A stretch of 64,000 nt of DNA. It comes from Alphaproteobacteria bacterium (GTDB lineage: Bacteria > Pseudomonadota > Alphaproteobacteria > SP197). The notes below the pieces were generated by a model. That model had not been told where the DNA came from. It saw only the letters and a program-made list of their open reading frames with translations, and made no database searches. The DNA is taken from contig OZ219918.1 in NCBI GenBank assembly GCA_964291415.2, positions 736,001-800,000 of the forward strand. The letters run 5' to 3'. A program made the position numbers and the translations under genes. Shown in pieces: positions 5,981 through 29,518 of the stretch. Within the stretch, counting starts at the first letter, position 1; each line of letters opens with the position of its first letter.

Positions 5981-6176
5981 CACCTGTGGGGAGTCGCCGG
6001 AACCAGGCGGGGAGGAGCCGGTGCCGGAGCCTGACTGGTTGGACAGGTTGACGAACCGGGCGCCGTGTTCCCGGAGCGCTCCGCAACCGCAGTCGTCGCC
6101 GAACGGGAGTCCCGGAGGCGAGCGACCTCGCCAGGTCGCCATGCGTCTCTCATAATCGCAGGATCCGGATGTTACG

Positions 6177-6677
6177 ATGACCTTGTCCGAAGAGATCGCC
6201 TCCTGGGACGGCAAGTCCGCTGCCGCTCTGCAATCGACCTATGAGCGCCACTGCGCCGAAGAGGGCTTTGTCGCGACGATCCTAGGCCATTTCGCGGATG
6301 TCGAATTGCAACGGGCGGCAACCTGGCTGCTGAAGAAACATCTTGAGTCCGGCAACTCCCTGACCGCCGCCGATGGCCGCGCCGTCTTCGACATGCTGTC
6401 CGTTCAGGGTCATTGGGAATGCAAGTTGCATGTCCTCCAATGCCTTCCCTACCTGGAGATTCCCGAGAGCGAGAGCGCCAGTCTGGAACGGTTTCTGGAT
6501 GCCTGTCTCGAGAGCGACAACAAGTTCGTGAGGGCGTGGGCCTATAACGGGTTCAGCGAACTGTCGCTGCGCTTTCCGAGATACCGGGAGAGGGTGGACG
6601 GCCTGCTCGCCCGGGCCGCCACATCGGAAGCGGCGTCGGTTCGGGCAAGAATTCGCAATATCCTTAAACGGCGCTGA
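6177..6677 (+). CDS. Hypothetical helical-repeat (HEAT/ARM-like) protein
   Basis: 166-aa ORF with amphipathic helices, NKFVRAWAY and ASVRARIR; CATAAT -10 upstream. Confidence 0.65.
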   Translation: MTLSEEIASWDGKSAAALQSTYERHCAEEGFVATILGHFADVELQRAATWLLKKHLESGNSLTAADGRAVFDMLSVQGHWECKLHVLQCLPYLEIPESESASLERFLDACLESDNKFVRAWAYNGFSELSLRFPRYRERVDGLLARAATSEAASVRARIRNILKRR

Positions 6678-6700
6678 GATACCGACTACCGCTCGTCCGC

Positions 6701-7162
6701 ATGCGGCATGCGGTATCCGACGCCGCGGTGGTTGTAGAACCAGGCCGGGCGGGCGGCGGGCTCGCCTGGACCGACCCCAAGAGCGGGATCACGGTCGAGA
6801 TCAAGGCGCGCGGCCTGCCGGCCCACGATGCGCACGGGTTCCGCGAGCTCGGCCTCTTGGGCTCATTCGGCTGGGACCCGAGACCGGGCTCCGGCTGTGG
6901 TCCGTCGCTGACGCTGACCATGAGCGCGTCGGCCTCGGGCGGCGTGGCCCCGCTGTTCGGCAAAGCCGCGCCGTCGGCACTCTCGGCCAACGACACCGCT
7001 GCCGGGCTCGACTCGCGGCGCTTCGAAGCGAAGCTGGGCTACGGCATCGGCGCGTTCGGCGACCGGTCCTTCGAGCTCAGGCTCGACGCGACCCGAACGG
7101 AGCCCTCCAACGACAACGCGCCGGAGCACAGCGTCGGACTGACGATGACGGCTCGTTGGTAG
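6701..7162 (+). pseudogene. Remnant of the C-terminal beta-barrel of an autotransporter-like surface protein
   Basis: GGGLAWTDP.SG....ARGL.AH...GFRE.G....WDPRP..G.GPSLTL...SASGG...ANDT...RRFEAKLGYG...ELRLDATR.E..NDNAPEH.VG....ARW; no signal peptide or passenger domain. Confidence 0.7.
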
Positions 7163-7336
7163 CACTGTGGAGGCCCAGGCGGCGCGCGCTCTGGAGTCCG
7201 GAATGTGACGCAGGTCCAATCAGGAAGATCCGGTCCATTTGCTGGCACGTGGAGATGACGTGCGGAATGAGGCTCTCATTCTGCCGAGGATCGATCTTTC
7301 GGACTCCGGGCCGAACCGGAAGAATCTCTCCGGATC

Positions 7337-8551
7337 TTACACGGTGGTGATGGTCCGTGGCAGTGAGGAGAGAACCTCGAGGCCGGAGTCGGTGACGAGG
7401 AAGCTGTCGATCCAGGCGGCGCCGGATCCGCCTGGCCAGTCCTCCCAGACGTCGAACTGGTTCTCGAGGTTGAACACCTGGCCTGGCTCCAGGGTGCGGT
7501 CTCCCAGGTTGTTGCGGGGGCTGATCCAGTGGCTGCCGCACCAGTCCGGGGGCACGGCGATGCCGAGAGAGTAGCCGCCGACAAACCAGACCCACTGCCT
7601 CAGTCCGGCGCGGTCGATGTAGTCGTCCGCCACCTCCTGGACCTTCGAGACCGGATCGCCGGGCCGGCATGCTTGCGTGACGGCATCCATGCAGCCGGCG
7701 GATGTTGTCATGAGCCTGGTCCAGCGCTCGTCGGGCTGGCCTAAGGAAAACGTGCGGTTGAGGTTGACGTGGTAGCGGTGGAGGCAGCCGCAGAAATCGA
7801 GAAACACCAGGTCTCCCTGCCTGATGCGGCGGTGCTGCGGGGGACTGTGGTGGGTGCCGGCGCGAGGGCCTGTGCCCACCATGGTGCGGATTCCGGGATA
7901 GCCGCCGCCCGCCTTCATCATGGTCGAGGCGACGACGGCTTCGAGGTGTGTCTCCATCACGCCCTCGGCAATGGCGTCACGGGCCGCCAGCATGGCCTCG
8001 TCGGCGATGGCGGCCGCCCGCTTCATCACGGCAACCTCCGCCGGCGACTTCACGAAGCGCAGTTCCTCGACGAGGAACGAGGCGTCGTCCACCGTCGCTC
8101 CACCGGCCTCGAGGACCGCCTTGAGCGTGTCGCTGGTCCGCCCGTGGGGGGCGTAGGCCCAGGGCTGTATTCCGACCCTTGCCGAAGCGAGGCCGAAGTC
8201 TCCAAGGGCTCCGGCGACCTGGCGGCACTCGCTCTCCACGGATTCGTGATTGAGCCAGCACACGTCGCGAATCTCCGGCGTGGTGGAAATGATCGTCGTG
8301 TGGCCGCGACCGTCGAAGAACAGCGTGTCGTCGCTGCCGGCGCGTACCAGGAGCCCTGTCAGGTTCTCGAGGTGATACCAGATCATGTCATAGCCGGTGA
8401 GCCACGTGAGATCGGCCGGGTTGGTGACGAAGAGAGCCTCGAGACCGGCACGGGTCATCGCCTGCCTCGTGCGTTCCCGGCGCCGGGCATACTCCTCGGC
8501 TGTGAAAGGCTGGTCCCAGTCAATCTGTTGGCGCAGGTAGGTCTGGATCAT
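7337..8551 (-). CDS. M24 family amidohydrolase (creatinase/ectoine hydrolase DoeA-like)
   Basis: FT.EEY.RR..TR.AM...GL..L.VT.PA...WLTGYD; R.VKS.AE; GYSLG in place of GHGVG; start at MIQTYL after GGAGA. Confidence 0.85.
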   Translation of the reverse strand: MIQTYLRQQIDWDQPFTAEEYARRRERTRQAMTRAGLEALFVTNPADLTWLTGYDMIWYHLENLTGLLVRAGSDDTLFFDGRGHTTIISTTPEIRDVCWLNHESVESECRQVAGALGDFGLASARVGIQPWAYAPHGRTSDTLKAVLEAGGATVDDASFLVEELRFVKSPAEVAVMKRAAAIADEAMLAARDAIAEGVMETHLEAVVASTMMKAGGGYPGIRTMVGTGPRAGTHHSPPQHRRIRQGDLVFLDFCGCLHRYHVNLNRTFSLGQPDERWTRLMTTSAGCMDAVTQACRPGDPVSKVQEVADDYIDRAGLRQWVWFVGGYSLGIAVPPDWCGSHWISPRNNLGDRTLEPGQVFNLENQFDVWEDWPGGSGAAWIDSFLVTDSGLEVLSSLPRTITTV

Positions 8552-10516: not shown

Positions 10517-11050
10517 GTGGCAGTTGTGGAGGACACGACACTGGAGGACAGGCTCGAAAGTCTGATCGCACCGAGCGTGGCGAGCGTCGGTTTCAGCCTT
10601 GTGCGGGTGAAGATGTTCAACCGCCAGGGCAGGATTCTGCAGGTCATGATCGAGCGCGCCGACGGCGACAGCGCGACGATTGACGACTGCGCCATGGTGA
10701 GCCGCCTTGTGAGTGCCCATCTCGATGCCGAGGATCCGGTTTCGGGAGCTTACGACCTTGAGGTGAGCTCCACCGGAATCGACCGTCCTCTGGTGCGCCG
10801 GGAGGATTTCAGCCGGTTCGCCGGTTTCGAGGCGACGGCGTCCATCGATCCGCCGCTCGACGGCAGAAGGCGATTCCAGGGCCGCCTCGCCGGCATGGCC
10901 GACGACAACGTGCAGATGGAACAGTCTCCCGGCTCGATCGTCTGCCTGCCGTTTGCCCGCATTGTCGAAGCGAAACTTGTCCTCAATGACGAACTGATCA
11001 GGGAAACGGCGCAGCCGGCCGGCGAACCGGCCGTGGCCGAGGCGGGATAG
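10517..11050 (+). CDS. rimP: Ribosome maturation factor RimP
   Basis: LQVMIER, IDDCA.VSR.VSA.LD.EDP, Y.LEVSS.GIDRPL. Confidence 0.95.
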   Translation: MAVVEDTTLEDRLESLIAPSVASVGFSLVRVKMFNRQGRILQVMIERADGDSATIDDCAMVSRLVSAHLDAEDPVSGAYDLEVSSTGIDRPLVRREDFSRFAGFEATASIDPPLDGRRRFQGRLAGMADDNVQMEQSPGSIVCLPFARIVEAKLVLNDELIRETAQPAGEPAVAEAG

Positions 11051-11054
11051 GATC

Positions 11055-12632
11055 ATGGCGGCTGTGACGAACGTGGCGCACAGGGATCTGCTGCAGATCG
11101 CGGCGACCGTGGCGACAGAGAAAGGCATCGAGCGCGAGACCGTGATCGAGGCACTCGAACAGGCGATCCAGAGTGCCGCGATGAAGAAGTACGGTGAACT
11201 CGATATCAGGGTCGAGATCGACCGCACGTCCGGTGCGGTGACGCTGTTGCTCTACCGCGAGGTCGTCGGGGATGACGTCGAGCTGCAGCCGGGTCTGCAC
11301 ATCACTCTCGATGAGGCACGCCGGAAGAATCCCGTCGCCGAGGTCGGGGACTTCATCACCGAGGATCTGCCGCCGGTCGAATTCGGACGCATCTCCGCCC
11401 AGGGCGCCAAGCAGACCATCATGCAGAAGGTTCGCGAGGCCGAGCGCGCCCGCCAGTACAACGAATTCAAGGACCGCGTCGGGGAGATTATCAATGGAGT
11501 CGTCAAGCGCGACGAGCGCGGCAACCAGATCGTCGATCTGGGACGTGCCGAGGCGATGTTGCGGCGCGATGACTGCCTGCCGCGCGAGCCGTTGCGCCGC
11601 GGAGACCGGGTGAGGGCCTATGTCTACGACGTGCGCCAGGAGTCCCGTGGCCCGCAGGTCTTCATCTCGCGCGTGCACCCCGATTTCATGCGCAAGCTCT
11701 TCGAAATGGAGGTCCCGGAGATCTATGACGGGATCATCGAGATCCGCGCGGTCGCCCGCGACGCCGGGAGCCGGGCAAAGATCGCCGTCAGGACCAACGA
11801 CGACTCCATTGATCCCGTTGGCGCCTGCGTCGGCATGCGGGGCAGCCGTGTTCAGGCCGTCGTCAACGAGCTGGGCGGCGAGAAGATCGACATCATTCCC
11901 TGGTCGCCGGACACCGCCACCTTCGTCGTAAACGCCCTGCAGCCGGCGGAGGTCGCCAAGGTTGTCATGGACGAAGCGGAGCGGCGCATGGAAGTCGTGG
12001 TTCCGGATGACCAGTTGTCCCTGGCGATTGGCAGGCGCGGCCAGAATGTGCGCCTCGCCTCGCAACTCGTAGGCTGGGACATCGATATCATGACGGAAAG
12101 CGGCGAATCGGAGCGCCGCACCAATGAAATGCGCGTGCAGTCCGAGCACTTCATGGAAGCGCTCGACGTCGATGACGTGCTTGCCAGACTCCTCGTGACC
12201 GAGGGATTCTCGGAGGTCGAGGAGATTGCCTTCGAGTCCACCGAGGAACTGCTTTCCATCGAGGGACTCGACGAGGGAATCGCCCAGGAACTGCAGAACC
12301 GGGCCATCGCGTTTGTTCAGGAGCGCGATCTTCAGTTCGATGCCAGGCGCCAGGAACTTGGCGTCGAGGACGACGTTGCCGCCGTTGACGGACTGACGCC
12401 GGCCTTCCTTGTCGAGCTGGGCGAGAAGGGAATCAGGACTCTCGACGATCTGGCCGACCTGGCGGCTGACGAGTTGCTGCAGGACTATCTGCCCGGCACG
12501 TACCTGACGCCGGATGACGCCAACGCCATCATCATGGCGGCACGTGCCCACTGGTTCGAGGGTGAGGAAGACGGCCACGCGACCGGGCCGTCCGCGCAAG
12601 GTGACAACGCTGATGCCCGGTCCGAACACTAA
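11055..12632 (+). CDS. nusA: Transcription termination/antitermination factor NusA
   Basis: [48 protein letters not shown]. Confidence 0.98.
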
Positions 12633-24224: not shown

Positions 24225-25016
24225 TCAGCGAGTCCGCTTGAGCGCCGTCTGGGTGAAGTCGTTGAGATCGAGGTCGGTTCCGAACGTGTAGTCCGTCCAG
24301 TTGAGATCGGTACTCTTCCCGGTGAGATGATTCGTCATCGACAGTTGTCTGGCACGCCAGAAGCGGTCGAGGTAGAGGTTGTAGTCATCGACCACCAGAG
24401 TCTTGAGAAGGGATTCCCTGCGGTCGTAGTACTCGATCCTGACGGTGAGCAGTTCGACCGTGTCGATCCACATCACCTGGCGCGAGTAACCGGAGTCCTC
24501 GAGGGTCGGGAAGCGTTCAATCATGTGGCATGTCAGATCGCCACAGGGTTCCTCACCGAGATGCCGGTAGGTGTATCGTTCGATCTCCGAGGCCCCCATG
24601 TCCTCGTATGAGAATTCGCTTCCCATGAATGAACCCGACTGGTTCGACGAACTGATGCGCTTGACCCTCTCGAGGGCCGGGAGATAGAGCCACTGGTCGT
24701 CCGCCTCGTCCTTGTGGGCGTGGACGAGGAAGGCTGTTCCCTTGACATCGCGCGGCCGGTCGAAAACGAAAATGGTGCGGTCTCCATCGTTCTCGACCTC
24801 GATGACCTTGATGCGGACCTCCCGCGTACTTTCCTCCCCGCGCTTGTTGCGCAGGATCATGCCCATGTTCGCCGTGAAGTTTCCGAATCCCTTCTGGCGT
24901 TCGCGGGCCTCCGTGGCAATACGCAACCCGGCTTCCTCGGGCGTTTCGGCATCGACACGGGACAGTCCCGGAATCCAGGCGGCGGCAAAGGCAACGAGGA
25001 CGAGAATCATGCGCAT
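24225..25016 (-). CDS. Outer membrane lipoprotein-sorting protein (LolA-like)
   Basis: Signal peptide MRMILVLVAFAAA; F..P.DVKGTAFL, DDQWLYLPAL.RVKRI, GSFMGSEFSYED. Confidence 0.9.
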   Translation of the reverse strand: MRMILVLVAFAAAWIPGLSRVDAETPEEAGLRIATEARERQKGFGNFTANMGMILRNKRGEESTREVRIKVIEVENDGDRTIFVFDRPRDVKGTAFLVHAHKDEADDQWLYLPALERVKRISSSNQSGSFMGSEFSYEDMGASEIERYTYRHLGEEPCGDLTCHMIERFPTLEDSGYSRQVMWIDTVELLTVRIEYYDRRESLLKTLVVDDYNLYLDRFWRARQLSMTNHLTGKSTDLNWTDYTFGTDLDLNDFTQTALKRTR

Positions 25017-25462
25017 GGTGGGTTCCTCACTTTCCGTTTCCGGAGCCTGCAGTCCAGGTCGAGTCCGACGAGACGGGAAGGCCGGCGGTCCGTGCATGCG
25101 CGACAACGCTGCCGGACGGCGTCAGGAACCCCTCACTGCCATCGCACAAGCCTGAGGCCATCGAACGCTCCATTCCGTAGAACCATGCCGATCATAGCCC
25201 CAAGACAGTCAAACAAACAGGTGAACGAGAGCCAGACGGGCTTGACCCCTTGACATGACATGCGTTGCCAAACGACCGCATGGCGCCGGCAGCCCAGGCT
25301 CAACAGCCGGCACAGATCCGCACGGATTCGCAGCGCAAGGCACCGTTTGGCACGACACCAGGCTGTTCGGAGCCCGGATCCACAGCGCGCACAGACCGAA
25401 TTCGCGGCCTCCGGATCAACGTCCTCCAGTCGGACCGTTCCATCGAGCGGTCCGCAACCCGA

Positions 25463-26491
25463 TCACAGTCGCTGACTGTCCTGGGTTTCGCGTCCGACAG
25501 GGTTGGCTGGTTCGTGATGGAGGGCGAGACGTTGGCACATTGTTGCCAACCTCTTGCGGAGGCGGACGGGCTTCTCGACGATGACGCTGTCGCCCCAGGT
25601 GACGAGGTGCCAGCACATCTCGTCGATGCCGCCCGCCTTGAACTGCACCGTGACCGAACCATCGCCGTTCTCCTCGACCGCCTGGTCCGGGTGAAACAGG
25701 AAGGCTGCAGCATCCCGCGCCGCCCGGGGCAGGAAGCGCAGGACGACCTTGACGGGCCTTTCCTGGAACGTGCCAAAGGAACGCCTGGCGTAGGCCCTCA
25801 AGTCGAACGCCGGATCGCGCTCGAACCGCTCGTCGGCGAGCCGGGCGTCGCTCACGTTCGTGAGACGCCACAGACGCAACTCGCCGGCCCAGTCGGTACG
25901 TCCTACCAGGAAGGCCCGATTGCCGTGGAGCAGGCCATAGGGCTGCACACGTTGGCGGCTTTGCCGTCCCGTCGACTGGGCGATGTAGTGGAATTCCACC
26001 ACACGGCTGGTCACGACGGCCTCGCGCAGGAGCGAGAGAAGGCCGGCGTCGAGGCGTGGTCGGGGCCCAGGACGCATGGCCAGCCCTTCGGCGAGGACCA
26101 GCGCCTCGACGTCCGCCTCAATTCTGTCAAGCGTATGCTGTTGCATCGCGGCACGCAGCTTGCAGGCGATCTCCCGCATCGTCTCAGCCCTTCCGTCGAG
26201 GCCAGCGCGCTCCAGGGCGTCGGCGGCTCCTGCCAGTTCCGCCAGCTCCTCTGCCGAGATGGAGACGAGGCGGCGCAGGGCATCCGAGCGCAATCGCCAG
26301 TGTTTCCTCTTGTCGTCCCGTGGCACGGTTTCCAGAGCTCCGAAGGCCGCTTCGACAGCATCCCGCATGCGCTCTGCCGTCTTCCGGCTGACTTTGAAGT
26401 CATCCTGGATGCCGTCCAGCGTCATGCCGCTGCGCGAGCCCTGCATGCGTATTGCCAGATCGATGATGTCCGTCAGTCGTTCATACCGCAT
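25463..26491 (-). CDS. HTH-WYL-WCX transcriptional regulator, DriD-like
   Basis: wHTH GMTLD.I...FKVSRKTAERMRDAV; DVEALV.AE...GPRP; WYL core R.V.PYGL......FLV; C-terminal DGSV.V.F.AGG..EM.WHL.TWGD recalls Caulobacter DriD. Confidence 0.9.
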   Translation of the reverse strand: MRYERLTDIIDLAIRMQGSRSGMTLDGIQDDFKVSRKTAERMRDAVEAAFGALETVPRDDKRKHWRLRSDALRRLVSISAEELAELAGAADALERAGLDGRAETMREIACKLRAAMQQHTLDRIEADVEALVLAEGLAMRPGPRPRLDAGLLSLLREAVVTSRVVEFHYIAQSTGRQSRQRVQPYGLLHGNRAFLVGRTDWAGELRLWRLTNVSDARLADERFERDPAFDLRAYARRSFGTFQERPVKVVLRFLPRAARDAAAFLFHPDQAVEENGDGSVTVQFKAGGIDEMCWHLVTWGDSVIVEKPVRLRKRLATMCQRLALHHEPANPVGRETQDSQRL

Positions 26492-26563
26492 CGGGATGTT
26501 CCTCGCTGTCCCCGGAGGTTCACTGGCCGGCCACCATGGCGCGACCGATGGGGCGCGACAACC

Positions 26564-28633
26564 TCATCTCAGGAAGCCGATGGTCCGGGGGCGGTGGGGC
26601 TTGGCGGCACACTCGGCACGGAGCATCGCGGCGAGTGCATCCGGTTCCGTGAGGCGTCCCAGAAGGCCAGCCTTACGGCGAACCACCGCAAAGTCGCCAG
26701 GAGTGAGGGCTGTCAGGTCCGAAAAATTCTCCGGCGGAGCGAGTCCGAACAAGGTGTGGAACGCCATGCAAACCTGGGCGGGCGTGAGATAGTCGAGGGA
26801 GACCTTGAAGACGAAACGCCGCAGGGTCGCCGGGTCGAGGTGTTCGCCGAAGTTGGTCGTGCAGGCGAAGGGCAGGGGATGGCTCTCCATCCAGGTCAGC
26901 ATCTCGTTGACCTGGCTGACTTCCCAGTTCCTGTTGGCGAAACGCCGGTCGGCGAGCAGCGAGTCGGCCTCGTCGAACACCAGGAACGCCCCGTCGTCGC
27001 GCGCCTCCGCAAATGCGTCGGCGATCTGCTGCTCCGTCTCTCCGACCCACATCGACATCAGGTCCGAGGCCCGCTTCTGCATCACCTCGAGGCCGAGGCG
27101 TTCGGCAAGGTAGCGGACAAATGCGCTCTTGCCCGTGCCCGGCGGTCCCTGAAGACACAGCGAGAACCGTCGTTCTCCGGACTTGACGAGACGGTCGGCG
27201 AGTTCGCGGGGGTCGGTGTCGGCCTTCAACAGCGCCAGGTCGAAGCGTTCCGGCGTCACCGGAGGGGGAGCATGGCGCCCCATGACGCGGGACAGGCTGC
27301 GTACGCCCAGGCGCACCGTGGCGAGATCGCCGGCACCGAGACGCGCCGCGGCGACGGCACCGGCTGCGACGCCGGGCGTGGCGTCGAACTCACATGCCAG
27401 AGCGCGAGCGTCCCCGGGGCCCGCCGGGATGCGGTAACGCTCGAGTTGACGGGTCCAGATCCTCGTGCGCACCCGGACCGTCGGCGCGCGCATCTCGAAG
27501 GCAAACATCATGCGCCGGAGAACGGCGGGGCTGACGTGTTCCGTGTCGTTCGTGGTCCACAGCGTCGGCGTCGGAGCCTGTTCAAGCAGCCGATGCATGA
27601 ACACCCTTGAGGCCGCTCCGCGCGAACCCGCACGCCGGCGCGGGAGGAAGCCGAGGTCCGGAGCGGCGTTGCCAAGCAGATCCTCCATCTCGTCGAACAT
27701 GAGAAGTGCGCGGTGCTCGCCGGCGAGCAGGCGCTGGACGAGGCGCAACTCCTGGAGCCTCTCGCTCCGGGAGGGTTCGTCGCCACTCTCATCCGATTCC
27801 CCGACGCCGTAGAGCTTTACGCCGAGCCGCTCGGCCAGAACCTTGCAGAACTCGGTCTTGCCGGTTCCCGGCGGTCCGTACAAGAGGATGTTGACGCCCG
27901 GCGCGCGGGTATCGAGCGCGCCCTTGATCAGCGTCTCGACGTGGTCTCGGTCGCCGGCGACATGGTCGAAGTCGGTCCAGTCGAGATCGCTCGCGAGCGC
28001 AGGATCGAGCAGCAGGCTGGCGACATCGCGATCCGAATCGCCCTGCGCGTAGACGAGTTGTCTCAGCCGTTTCAGCATCATCACTTCGCCGTCGTCGCGG
28101 TCGATGGAGACGAGTCCCGACCGGACGAGAGGGGCGTCGGCCTCGAGCCGTCTCGCGATCGCGTTGGGCGAGCGGCCGAGAAGCACTGGCAGGATCCGCC
28201 CTCCGAGGGAGAAGACGGGTCCGCTGTCCAAGGAACCCTCGAAGATGTCGTCGATCATCGACTCGAACACCGGCCGGGTCCAGTAACGCAACAGGACTTC
28301 CAGGATGGCGACGTCGGTGGGCGAAAGGCCGGCCGAGTGCCCGAGACGCCGGAGGCGTCGCGCGACCCGGTCCGGTCTCACCCTGCGGTTCGCGCATTCC
28401 TCGCGCAGGGTGGCGCCGAGATTGCGGAATCGCCGGGCGGTCAACTCGTCGTCACAGTCGAACTCCCGGCGGCGTCTGCGTGAGCGCCGGCTCTCGCGTC
28501 CACGCGCGATAAGGCTCTCCCTGTCGGTCACCCACATGGCCAGCGCCGTCGCCTCTGGATCCCGATGGGAGAGACGCGATGCGGCGTTCGCCAGGTAAAG
28601 CGCCAGCAGGCGATGTTCGTAAGCGGTCAGCAT
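26564..28633 (-). CDS. Tandem (double) AAA+ ATPase with an unknown N-terminal domain
   Basis: Walker A GPPGTGKT / Walker B LLMFDEMED; second module GPPGTGKS / FLVFDEADS; SRH TTN...LDPA.LRRF; ends RTIGFLR; GGAGG RBS. Confidence 0.93.
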   Translation of the reverse strand: MLTAYEHRLLALYLANAASRLSHRDPEATALAMWVTDRESLIARGRESRRSRRRRREFDCDDELTARRFRNLGATLREECANRRVRPDRVARRLRRLGHSAGLSPTDVAILEVLLRYWTRPVFESMIDDIFEGSLDSGPVFSLGGRILPVLLGRSPNAIARRLEADAPLVRSGLVSIDRDDGEVMMLKRLRQLVYAQGDSDRDVASLLLDPALASDLDWTDFDHVAGDRDHVETLIKGALDTRAPGVNILLYGPPGTGKTEFCKVLAERLGVKLYGVGESDESGDEPSRSERLQELRLVQRLLAGEHRALLMFDEMEDLLGNAAPDLGFLPRRRAGSRGAASRVFMHRLLEQAPTPTLWTTNDTEHVSPAVLRRMMFAFEMRAPTVRVRTRIWTRQLERYRIPAGPGDARALACEFDATPGVAAGAVAAARLGAGDLATVRLGVRSLSRVMGRHAPPPVTPERFDLALLKADTDPRELADRLVKSGERRFSLCLQGPPGTGKSAFVRYLAERLGLEVMQKRASDLMSMWVGETEQQIADAFAEARDDGAFLVFDEADSLLADRRFANRNWEVSQVNEMLTWMESHPLPFACTTNFGEHLDPATLRRFVFKVSLDYLTPAQVCMAFHTLFGLAPPENFSDLTALTPGDFAVVRRKAGLLGRLTEPDALAAMLRAECAAKPHRPRTIGFLR

Positions 28634-28664
28634 GGCGTTCCCTCCGTTCCGTCAAGTCGGAGGA

Positions 28665-28699
28665 AATGTAACCGGCCACGACGTCATATCCGGTCGTAT
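28665..28699 (-). promoter_or_regulatory. Putative WYL-activator (DriD-like) box plus -10 element for the AAA-WYL operon
   Basis: Minus strand ATACGAC-CGGATAT-GACGTCG; TGACGT-N10-TACATT geometry; -10 ends 31 nt before the ATG. Confidence 0.65.
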
Positions 28700-29092
28700 T
28701 GGGGGAGTCTTTCTTCGACGTGGACGAGACCGGTCCGCTCTGTGCGGCAAGCGGTCAGGGGCAGTCACTCGCTTGATCGACGAACCTCTCCAGAATGTCG
28801 AGAAACTCCGGATCATCATGAACATCGCGGGCAACAACACCGACGTGCCGCCCAGCCCTCAAGCTCCCGTCGCGTCATCGCAGCTTCATCCTGGCAGGAT
28901 CCGGTTCAGTATCCCCGGACCGGTTTGGTGACATTGACACGTGGCTCGCCACGCATGAATCGGCCGGGATTGTCCAGAAAGACCCTGACGGCGGCGGTCG
29001 GACGTCTACGCAAGCATGGAATGACATCTGGAATCCGGTCTTCGGTTGTCCCAATCTTCAGGACAGCCGTTGTTCCATTGGGAGAATCGATC

Positions 29093-29518
29093 ATGGACGG
29101 GTCAGCCTACGCCGGTGACGTCATGCCTGCTGATGCCTTCGCCGCCCTCGAAAATGACGAGGACGCCGTTCTCATTGACGTGCGCACGGAAGCTGAATGG
29201 CGCTTTGTCGGGGTGCCGGACCTCTCGGGCCTGGGCAAGAGAACGAGATTCGTCGAGTGGCAGCTCTATCCCGACGGCCGGCCCAATCCGGCGTTCGCGA
29301 GACAGTGCGGGGAACAGGGTCTCGAGAAGGGGAGGGCGGTCTACTTCCTGTGCCGCTCCGGCGTACGCTCCATGCATGCAGCGATCGCCATGACATCGCT
29401 GGGCTACGGTCCCTGCTACAACGTGGCGGAGGGATTCGAAGGCGACAAGGATGCATCGATGCAGCGGGGCCGGCTTGGCGGCTGGAAGGTCCGCGGTTTG
29501 CCCTGGCGTCAGGAATAG
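29093..29518 (+). CDS. Rhodanese-like sulfurtransferase
   Basis: YAGDV.P..A, LIDVRTEAEW.FVGVP, FLCRSG.RS, YNV.EGFEG, GW...GLPW.Q. Confidence 0.93.
   Translation: MDGSAYAGDVMPADAFAALENDEDAVLIDVRTEAEWRFVGVPDLSGLGKRTRFVEWQLYPDGRPNPAFARQCGEQGLEKGRAVYFLCRSGVRSMHAAIAMTSLGYGPCYNVAEGFEGDKDASMQRGRLGGWKVRGLPWRQE

Follow-up and report, generated by a model that had tools for sequence, protein, structure and literature searches.

The stretch of DNA analysed here (the window; 64,000 nt, positions 736,001–800,000 of contig OZ219918.1 in assembly GCA_964291415.2, with all coordinates below given as window positions) carries a compact two-gene cassette, in which a gene for a tandem AAA+ ATPase is followed by a gene for a WYL-domain regulator homologous to DriD of Caulobacter crescentus, and in which a DriD-type operator lies in the ATPase promoter. 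On balance we favour the view that this cassette is a self-inducing operon activated by single-stranded DNA (ssDNA), with a protein unfoldase as its output, which would serve in conflict or in the response to DNA damage. The ATPase gene (689 aa; 26564–28633, stop codon included) comes first and the WYL gene (342 aa; 25463–26491, stop codon included) second, both on the minus strand and separated by a spacer of 72 nt; the former was delineated by open reading frame (ORF) calling, Pfam, a PDB-sequence search and homologue alignment, and the latter by ORF calling, Pfam and phmmer. Both ORFs are as given in a preliminary description of this DNA, which had recognised a same-strand unit of a 689-aa ATPase with two full Walker modules and a 342-aa WYL protein. 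Neither a terminator nor a stable hairpin was found in the spacer, the fold of which equals that of shuffled sequences (z 0.73), and this points to co-transcription of the two genes and, through it, to positive autoregulation by a regulator that would induce itself.

The regulator is a member of the winged helix-turn-helix (wHTH)-3HB-WYL-WCX proteins. Pfam placed the WYL domain (PF13280) at residues 151–217 (9.7e-12) and the WCX domain (PF25583) at residues 246–323 (4.8e-13), and a phmmer search of all PDB chain sequences returned Caulobacter DriD (9pfq, 8tp8) as the best match, with an E-value of 1.5e-59 over residues 1–315 and 45% sequence identity. Among the same chain sequences PafBC was reached only at 1.8e-4, and no BrxR or CapW chain appeared at E ≤ 1 (the BrxR entries named in the source text available are 7QFZ and 7T8K). 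The DriD-like identity put forward in the preliminary description is borne out by these values, as are the four motifs on which it had leaned: TAERMRDAV, DVEALV.AE, GPRP and AGG..E..WHL.TWGD were all found and align column for column with solved DriD, the first of them being the recognition-helix motif common to both proteins. The twelve ssDNA-contact residues given for DriD in the available text of Gozzi et al. 2022 (PMC9186387), namely Y168, S172, R176, R178, Y192, K202, R204, W206, R207, Y240, H241 and R288, were transferred through the phmmer alignment. Six of the twelve (Y168, S172, R178, R204, W206 and R207) are identical in the WYL protein, two more are conservatively changed (Y192 to F and Y240 to F), and the other four differ. 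By analogy with DriD, ssDNA may be the ligand of the WYL protein.

The operator was recognised by comparing the 300 nt 5′ of the ATPase start across 81 regions, one from the window and 80 from related loci. In the window it is the 21-bp sequence ATACGACCGGATATGACGTCG (28679–28699, minus strand), centred at the would-be −35 position. Its consensus, ATACG(A/T)CCGnATnTGACG(C/T)A, was matched with at most three mismatches in 60 of the 81 ATPase upstream regions, from many phyla, and in 55 of these 60 box-bearing regions the box lies 60–71 nt ahead of the start codon. A −10 hexamer, TACATT (28665–28670, minus strand), follows 8 nt past the operator; its TAnnnT pattern recurs in 60 of 60 box promoters at offsets 9–14 after the 21-mer (T in 92%, A in 100%, nnn, T in 100%), and position 21 after the box is A-rich, as expected of a start site. 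A −35 element was not found, and a consensus scan of 24900–29200 detected no sigma-70 promoter with a −35. The ATG start of the ATPase gene is preceded by the Shine–Dalgarno sequence GGAGGG (28640–28645, minus strand), kept as GGAG(A/G)G in the alignment of homologue loci. This arrangement agrees with the DriD promoters described in the available text of PMC13004042, in which DriD sites of the form ATACGAC-N7-GTCGTAT overlap the −35 position and keep a constant spacing to the −10; the didA and CCNA_03891 promoters printed there show, by eye, the 21-mer in matching register, with A at offset 10 and T at offset 14.

A position weight matrix (PWM) built from the 60 sites gave the window site 26.4 bits when the whole 4.44-Mb source genome was scanned, with 15.2 bits for the next best position and 21.7 bits for the weakest training site. 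The best of the weak boxes in this genome falls inside a coding frame and two others are without a proper −10, and the frames that follow the weak boxes were uninformative; the PWM scan found one strong site and no global damage regulon of the DriD type (didA, bapE, recJ and dnaG). A looser operator pattern with one mismatch allowed was uninformative (57 matches vs 128 in the control), and the PWM was used instead. Control of the ATPase by the WYL protein has direct evidence at the sequence level in this conserved operator. The proposal of the preliminary description that the WYL protein is the switch of the ATPase therefore gains a DriD-type operator and a box-to-(−10) geometry as in the DriD-activated promoters of Caulobacter; because a DriD relative is paired with the ATPase and a DriD-type operator lies in the promoter, the ATPase is probably switched on by ssDNA.

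Some further features of the ATPase upstream regions were also seen. A pyrimidine tract of the CTCTCC type after the −10 is complementary to the Shine–Dalgarno sequence in most loci (28634–28664 with 28640–28646 in the window). A leader hairpin sequestering the Shine–Dalgarno sequence, the 5′ arm of which would sit between the −10 and the likely start site, was rejected as compositional: RNAalifold gave no structure, the helix was 80.3% paired vs 77.8% in shuffles, and slid controls showed equal covariation. Two loci, L037 (~226 nt upstream of the ATPase start) and L044 (~91 nt), carry a variant palindrome, TGCGAC or CGCGAC, N7, GTCGCA, behind which come CCTCCT and an element that contains TA and resembles a −10 (CCTCCTAGGTAAA in L037), and L073 has the right half-site only (GTCGCACCTCCTATGTAA) ~130 nt upstream, at the edge of the stretch examined. 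The WYL gene near L044 and L073 is only ~25% identical, and none was found for L037; the variant palindrome of these three loci may represent a second operator dialect. Three loci of Arenicellales type, without an adjacent WYL gene, have ATACGAC-N7-GTCGTAT ~300 nt upstream of the ATPase.

The pairing itself is recurrent. Among the best 80 of 584 confirmed ATPase loci, in which kin loci are not independent, a close WYL homologue lies directly downstream on the same strand in 49, further downstream in 3 and divergently upstream in 2; 4 more have a partial copy, and 2 end too soon to tell. On plasmids, where the ATPase is 29–52% identical, a WYL gene was found in six of seven loci: it is annotated in five of the six annotated ones (Leisingera, Fuscovulum, Rhodoferax, Pantoea and Sphingobium) and was recovered by tblastn in the unannotated Azospirillum locus, and none was found in the Pseudomonas luteola plasmid locus. 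Viral contigs from IMG/VR, at 44% ATPase identity, have an adjoining WYL gene together with an upstream box in 6/7 loci. Recurrent linkage, on the presence of which the preliminary description had let its case depend, was thus found across phyla, plasmids and viral contigs. A sample of 301 evenly drawn genomes of the class (cut-offs of E ≤ 1e-40 for the ATPase and E ≤ 1e-30 for a DriD-like gene) contained the ATPase in 14 and a DriD-like gene in 29, with the two within 4 kb of each other in 9 genomes, which is 9/14 of the ATPase bearers and about a third of the DriD-like bearers. Pairwise divergences of the ATPase and the WYL protein are correlated over 29 loci (r 0.89; Mantel, 0 of 2000), and this co-divergence fits inheritance and transfer as a unit and does not show physical contact.

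Individual loci depart from the simple pair in several ways. Internal stops interrupt the WYL genes of L006 (8142–9119) and L039 (8218–9195); L026 looks decayed, with a stop in the ATPase gene (6001–6720) and a WYL remnant of only 69 aa (8146–8352); and the WYL genes of two genomes of the class sample contain one TGA (G095) or are split over two frames (G273). Such cassettes may commonly end up losing their regulator. L061 is an array with boxes at 302, 1267 and 5610 besides the ATPase promoter, L037 has two ATPase copies (401–2494 and 6001–8076) and L036 two distant WYL-like genes (1780–2757 and 10583–11560); these arrays, all within 14 kb, suggest local duplication or accretion of modules.

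The predicted output of the operon resembles the protein unfoldases of the Cdc48 group. PF00004 (AAA) was found in two stretches of the 689-aa protein (E 7.3e-34), and three parts could be distinguished on the minus strand: a family-specific N-terminal domain (residues 1–235; 27929–28633), helical with a winged-helix-like element in the AlphaFold2 model; module D1 (~residues 240–400; 27434–27916), with Walker A GPPGTGKT at 253–260 and Walker B at D314-E315; and module D2 (~residues 485–689; 26567–27181), with Walker A GPPGTGKS at 496–503, the pore loop MWVGE at 528–532 and Walker B at D554-E555. In 78 full-length homologues, the Walker A and B motifs, the sensor-1 Asn and the RR pairs are ≥90–98% conserved in both modules, as is the pore loop of D2, and both modules consequently look catalytically competent. 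VAT/Cdc48/p97 unfoldases are the best solved relatives (E ~1e-21), sharing tandem D1–D2 modules of the classic clade and the MWVGE pore loop of D2, and D2 is the part of the protein most like the D2 of Cdc48/p97/VAT and like IetA. In contrast to these unfoldases, the D1 pore loop is shifted (YGVGE) and the N-domain is unrelated, and the family score was not reached (TIGR01243, 58.9 vs a cut-off of 802.65). The N-domain was modelled with a pLDDT of 83 and a pTM of 0.78; its profile recovered 816 representative clusters among 1.84 billion proteins, always N-terminal in proteins of up to ~740 aa, and no longer fusions were found, which is weak evidence. Its look-alikes in the structural atlas are hypothetical proteins, with the PF22977 WHD in 11% of members, and the N-domain, the substrate-selecting part, is family-specific. 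Among the matches listed, at least ~120 full-length homologues of 61–89% identity are named only 'AAA family ATPase', and phage records held no full-length homologue. From the two competent-looking modules and the kinship to VAT/Cdc48/p97 we infer that the ATPase is a protein unfoldase.

Based on the above analysis, the following mechanism can be proposed. The downstream gene would encode a homodimeric transcription factor of the DriD family. Once ssDNA has loaded its WYL domain, as in Caulobacter DriD, this factor would bind the 21-bp operator, which overlaps the place of the −35 that the operon promoter lacks; the ssDNA could come from damaged DNA, from replicating phages or from mobile DNA entering the cell. 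Seated on the operator, the regulator would recruit RNA polymerase and so raise the expression of both itself, in positive feedback, and the upstream ATPase gene. The ATPase would be the output, most likely a hexameric, ATP-driven protein unfoldase or segregase at work under genotoxic or genetic-conflict stress. Relatives carry further genes beside this core of regulator and ATPase, for ADP-ribosylglycohydrolase, nucleases of the PD-(D/E)XK and Mrr types, DUF2779 and UvrD/SNF2 helicases, and an operator of their own precedes some of these genes. The part assigned here to the ATPase in damage or conflict is a putative one.

Several observations weigh against the ssDNA-activated unfoldase operon. 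All evidence on the cassette is computational, and the PWM was trained on the promoters that it then scores. Four of the twelve ssDNA contacts of DriD differ in the WYL protein (R176Q, K202E, H241Q and R288D). Of the residues by which DriD touches RNA polymerase, compared from the available text of PMC13004042, the WYL protein retains R122, E128 and G18 but has D for R121, A for P125 and R for A20, so that activation is not assured. Offset 7 after the box is G in 80% and offset 6 is T in 37% of promoters, which gives a minority of them an extended −10 and makes basal transcription and a repressor mode possible. Five of the 80 genome loci have only a distant WYL gene (~25% identity) and 15 have none within ~6 kb, and in the class sample 5 of the 14 ATPase-bearing genomes are without a nearby DriD-like gene. 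A Foldseek search of the PDB with the N-domain gave nothing at E ≤ 0.001, MarR and DnaD-N being weak rows only, and Pfam gave no match. Finally, short contigs in one metatranscriptome library, labelled sponge metagenome, match parts of the cassette, the promoter region among them, at 98–99% identity and a depth of ~4 (e.g., 28566–28758 with 2 differences and 26107–26347 with 5), and they are few, of low depth and show near-identical sequence only; they are no proof of transcription, because one runs upstream of the predicted start, they reveal no start site, and stretches that they leave uncovered carry no information. Depth in the same library peaks at 26824–26950, where many divergent contigs, from homologues of other organisms, cover the conserved Walker B-to-sensor-1 region of D2 (NEMLTWME...FACTTN).

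These partly changed contacts and extended −10 elements bear on the sign of the regulation. In a repressor of the BrxR/CapW type, the WYL protein would occupy the operator in unstressed cells and be released by its ligand, leaving the operon de-repressed. WYL regulators are activators or repressors depending on the system (available text of PMC13010146), CapW is an ssDNA-sensing repressor (available text of PMC11662680), and negative regulation has been proposed for WYL factors of systems centred on ADP-ribosylglycohydrolase (ARG; Iyer et al. 2022, PMC9503650, in the text available); moreover, the operator overlaps the core promoter, some promoters have a partial extended −10, and two of the four residues by which DriD contacts the alpha-subunit C-terminal domain, as well as A20, are changed. 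BrxR, CapW and PafBC also resemble the WYL protein in wHTH-WYL-WCX architecture and in their association with mobile conflict or damage genes, although they usually precede their cargo, and PafBC is a heterodimer or tandem fusion. We nevertheless regard repression as unlikely: the WYL protein is far nearer to the activator DriD than to any repressor, with no BrxR or CapW chain matched at E ≤ 1, the promoters are without any −35, and their box-to-(−10) spacing is that of DriD-activated promoters. The WYL protein would, on this evidence, activate rather than repress.

As an activator, the WYL protein can be compared with two described systems. Caulobacter DriD, an ssDNA-activated, SOS-independent wHTH-3HB-WYL-WCX activator with full-length homology to the WYL protein, differs in serving a dispersed regulon (didA, bapE, recJ and dnaG) and in not being damage-induced itself, and its gene is divergent from a small gene of no known function and a TonB-dependent transporter operon, as far as the available accounts describe. 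The WYL gene, on the other hand, is the second gene of the sole box-bearing operon in its genome, and the unit is mobile; for the former reason we expect the WYL protein to act locally, to induce itself and to serve its own operon alone. SiwR of Mycobacterium smegmatis follows a similar logic, with a homodimeric WYL activator, a palindrome just 5′ of the −10 of a neighbouring cargo operon and genotoxic induction; its cargo is a set of DinB-superfamily metalloenzyme-like genes from which siwR is divergent, whereas here the cargo is a tandem AAA+ ATPase in the same operon (SiwR being compared by description only, from partial accounts). Local ssDNA-sensing WYL activators with adjacent cargo (SiwR, DriD and DdaA) and WYL regulators beside defence systems (BrxR and CapW) are thus already known from the source texts available. 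No published description of an ATPase paired with a DriD-like protein was found in the literature searched, in agreement with the preliminary description, whose author knew of no characterised system with this pairing; what we have not found in print is the ATPase cargo, its close and widely transferred partnership with a DriD orthologue, and the portable operator.

The cassette shows several signs of mobility. It is flanked by a LolA_like lipoprotein-sorting gene (24225–25016, minus strand) and a single-domain rhodanese gene (29093–29518, plus strand, 141 aa), both unrelated to the pair, with 446 bp and 459 bp free of recognisable genes on the two sides, close to the roughly 450 bp of isolation that had been noted at the outset. 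The surroundings in the source genome are housekeeping genes, not a defence island, and the genome holds a single WYL gene and a single such ATPase gene; these single-copy and single-operator counts are to be read with the caveat that the assembly has 5 contigs, 100% completeness and 8.99% contamination. A genome of the same genus (G025, locus L111) presents the empty site, where the LolA-like and rhodanese genes are ~280 bp apart vs ~4.0 kb in the window, and locus comparison placed the absent segment of ~4.0 kb at 25018–29020. A block common to the window and relative L005 (25367–28698; blastn, 83% identity) starts exactly at the operator (28698) and ends ~100 nt past the WYL stop (25367). 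The GC content is 0.66–0.70 inside the segment or block and 0.60–0.63 outside, and a search of the boundaries for terminal or target-site repeats came up empty, as did one for a convincing terminator. The ~300 bp just upstream of the operator (28699–28997) fail to align with the closest relative, L003, while both sides are ~90% identical, and they form a small variable segment with short unconserved ORFs. The rhodanese gene was rejected as a member of the system: it stands beside cassettes only in the close relatives L003 (96%) and L005 (90%) and is also present at the empty site, and it is therefore a host gene.

The distribution of the ATPase points in the same direction. Homologues of 54–66% identity occur, by record titles, in Alpha- and Gammaproteobacteria, Latescibacterota, Acidobacteriota, Binatia, Nitrospirales, Gemmatimonadota and Thermodesulfobacteriota; all their carriers are metagenome-assembled genomes, and some hold two to three copies. 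The gene was found in 12/33 genomes of the window's order, in 11/22 other species of its own genus (56–89% identity) and in 0/10 genomes of other genera of the order, and homologues also lie on conjugative and mobilisable plasmids and on viral contigs. On these comparisons the predicted ATPase-WYL operon is horizontally mobile.

Mobility of this kind invites a reading as abortive anti-phage or anti-plasmid defence, in which the WYL protein would sense the replication intermediates of an invader and the induced ATPase would be a toxic effector that unfolds essential host or phage proteins, as proposed for IetA. Transfer across phyla, multiple copies, patchiness within a genus and carriage on plasmids and viral contigs all favour it, as do the Mrr, HNH, PD-(D/E)XK, HEPN, PLD, SNF2, NERD, AbiEi and PADLOC candidate families among the neighbours in relatives, and positive feedback would suit an all-or-none decision. 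IetA is also the best PADLOC match of the ATPase, through D2 (5.6e-26 in PADLOC and 8.5e-26 in NCBIfam), ietA toxicity is mentioned in the available text of PMC13069673, and IetAS (the AAA ATPase IetA and the serine protease IetS, with roles in plasmid stability and phage resistance) shares with the cassette a mobile, plasmid-borne habit. The match is confined to D2, however, and stays far below the curated cut-off (NF042959, 91 bits vs 510); IetA has a single AAA module, IetAS has no WYL regulator, and no IetS protease was found beside the ATPase, the neighbours of which are the WYL regulator, LolA_like and rhodanese genes. No system model of PADLOC-DB v2.0.0 was matched by the pair: the ATPase gave only partial IetA, TRIP13 and P-loop matches, and the regulator generic WYL models. 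Housekeeping genes make up the context both in the window and for most nearest neighbours in relatives. These were sampled as 142 of 150 ORFs, with the 8 longest excluded, by a crude ORF caller that also yields spurious antisense ORFs, and they fell into 84 Pfam families, most of them housekeeping and most seen once or twice; the commonest were ADP_ribosyl_GH (6) and DUF4143/AAA_14, PDDEXK_4, PDDEXK_1, GNAT and HNH_2 (3 each). About 12 of the 142 match PADLOC models at 1e-10, a number that has no baseline and from which enrichment is not claimed. Defence thus appears possible, and we give it a minor share of our confidence.

The accessory genes of relatives bear on a second reading. Counted within ~6 kb of the ATPase in 80 genome, 7 plasmid and 7 viral loci, ADP-ribosylglycohydrolase genes were found in 8, 4 and 1 loci, respectively, and DUF2779 in 9, 3 and 0; the others occurred in the genome loci and in none of the plasmid or viral ones, namely DnaB-like helicase (9), PDDEXK_4 (7), AddB-like PD-(D/E)XK (5), UvrD-type helicase (4) and Mrr-type nuclease (2). 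Most loci, that of the window included, have no accessory gene; the window holds none of those counted here and no ADP-ribosylglycohydrolase within 6 kb of the ATPase, and by clustering no gene family apart from the ATPase and WYL proteins is present in more than 8 of 81 loci. An ADP-ribosylglycohydrolase gene follows the ATPase in 7 loci by clustering, with Pfam confirmation in L036, where the gap is 25 nt, and in L054. The Leisingera and Fuscovulum plasmids share the order ATPase, WYL, ADP-ribosylglycohydrolase, (HEPN), PD-(D/E)XK nuclease and UvrD helicase, with a box of 21.9–27.3 bits ahead of both the ATPase and the glycohydrolase genes; the Rhodoferax plasmid adds Macro, DUF2779, a PLD-like protein and a DEAD helicase, and the Pantoea plasmid an SNF2 protein. 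Operator-like boxes also stand 48–246 nt upstream of DUF1643, Nmad2, Fic/DOC and inositol-monophosphatase/ADP-ribosylglycohydrolase fusion genes (L042:4390–4986, L061:4882–5562, L043:10371–10775 and L080:8796–10676), which are candidate members of a DriD-box regulon.

Many of these parts match the ARG-centric conflict systems predicted by Iyer, Burroughs, Anantharaman and Aravind (2022, PMC9503650): relatives of the cassette encode ADP-ribosylglycohydrolase, a WYL factor, phosphatases (5′-nucleotidase and the inositol-monophosphatase fusion), Macro, REase-fold nucleases and helicases. The core ARG gene, ADP-ribosylglycohydrolase, is not found in the window. The main text of that paper, figures and supplements aside, names vWA, SseB and TY chaperones and has 0 occurrences of an AAA+ ATPase, and in the text available it assumes negative regulation and ADP-ribose sensing for the WYL factors.

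With such companions, the ATPase could belong to a DNA-damage tolerance module, in which a Cdc48/p97-like segregase would extract or unfold proteins trapped on damaged, cross-linked or ADP-ribosylated DNA and clear the way for nucleases, helicases and the ADP-ribosylglycohydrolase. DriD, SiwR, PafBC and DdaA are all damage-response WYL activators in the source texts available, the accessory genes include repair-like ones (AddAB-like PD-(D/E)XK with UvrD, RecB-like, DUF2779 and DnaB-like) beside the glycohydrolase that follows the ATPase, and very small, nearly complete alphaproteobacterial genomes of 0.9 Mb (G276) and 1.7 Mb (G109 and G259) keep the ATPase (39–40% identity) and a DriD-like gene 1–4 kb off, a retention that is unexpected for a dispensable mobile gene. 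On the other hand, core repair genes are seldom so patchy or so often transferred, no other damage-response promoter in the source genome has the box, association of the ATPase with DNA or chromatin has no support, and the winged-helix likeness of the N-domain is weak. We rate damage tolerance on a par with defence, as a plausible minority interpretation of the output.

It is also conceivable that the ATPase is a partner of the regulator rather than an effector, stripping the WYL protein from ssDNA or unfolding it and thereby resetting or tuning it in negative feedback, while the true effectors are accessory genes or lie elsewhere. The pair is invariant where effector-like genes vary, its two members co-diverge, and a positive-feedback loop needs a shut-off. 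Yet with no accessory gene in most loci and one operator in the source genome the pair must work alone, and some ATPase genes keep the operator without an adjacent WYL gene, so that we find such a resetting role improbable. We retain the ssDNA-activated operon with an unfoldase as its output. More tentatively, and with considerable doubt, it may be extended to the core of an undescribed, widely transferred ssDNA-triggered family, in which a Cdc48/p97-like segregase would pull proteins off damaged, invaded or ADP-ribosylated DNA or kill the cell, and in which glycohydrolase, nuclease and helicase modules would share the operator code.

Increasingly, ssDNA-sensing WYL regulators are being found both in DNA-damage responses and in phage defence, mostly with a known defence system or a dispersed regulon as their cargo. 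Here, in contrast, a DriD orthologue is hard-wired to a single uncharacterised and highly conserved tandem AAA+ ATPase, and the two travel together between distant phyla. Since the operator can be read from sequence alone, the system is directly testable, and cultivable carriers exist, e.g., those of the Leisingera and Fuscovulum plasmids. This would open the way to finding out what an AAA+ family of several hundred representatives does, would allow a test of the generality of the DriD mechanism outside Caulobacter, and would tie ssDNA sensing to the ADP-ribosylglycohydrolase-centred conflict systems, so far known only by prediction. If the core-family reading is true, the DriD box would serve at least eight phyla as a portable 'ssDNA alarm' promoter.

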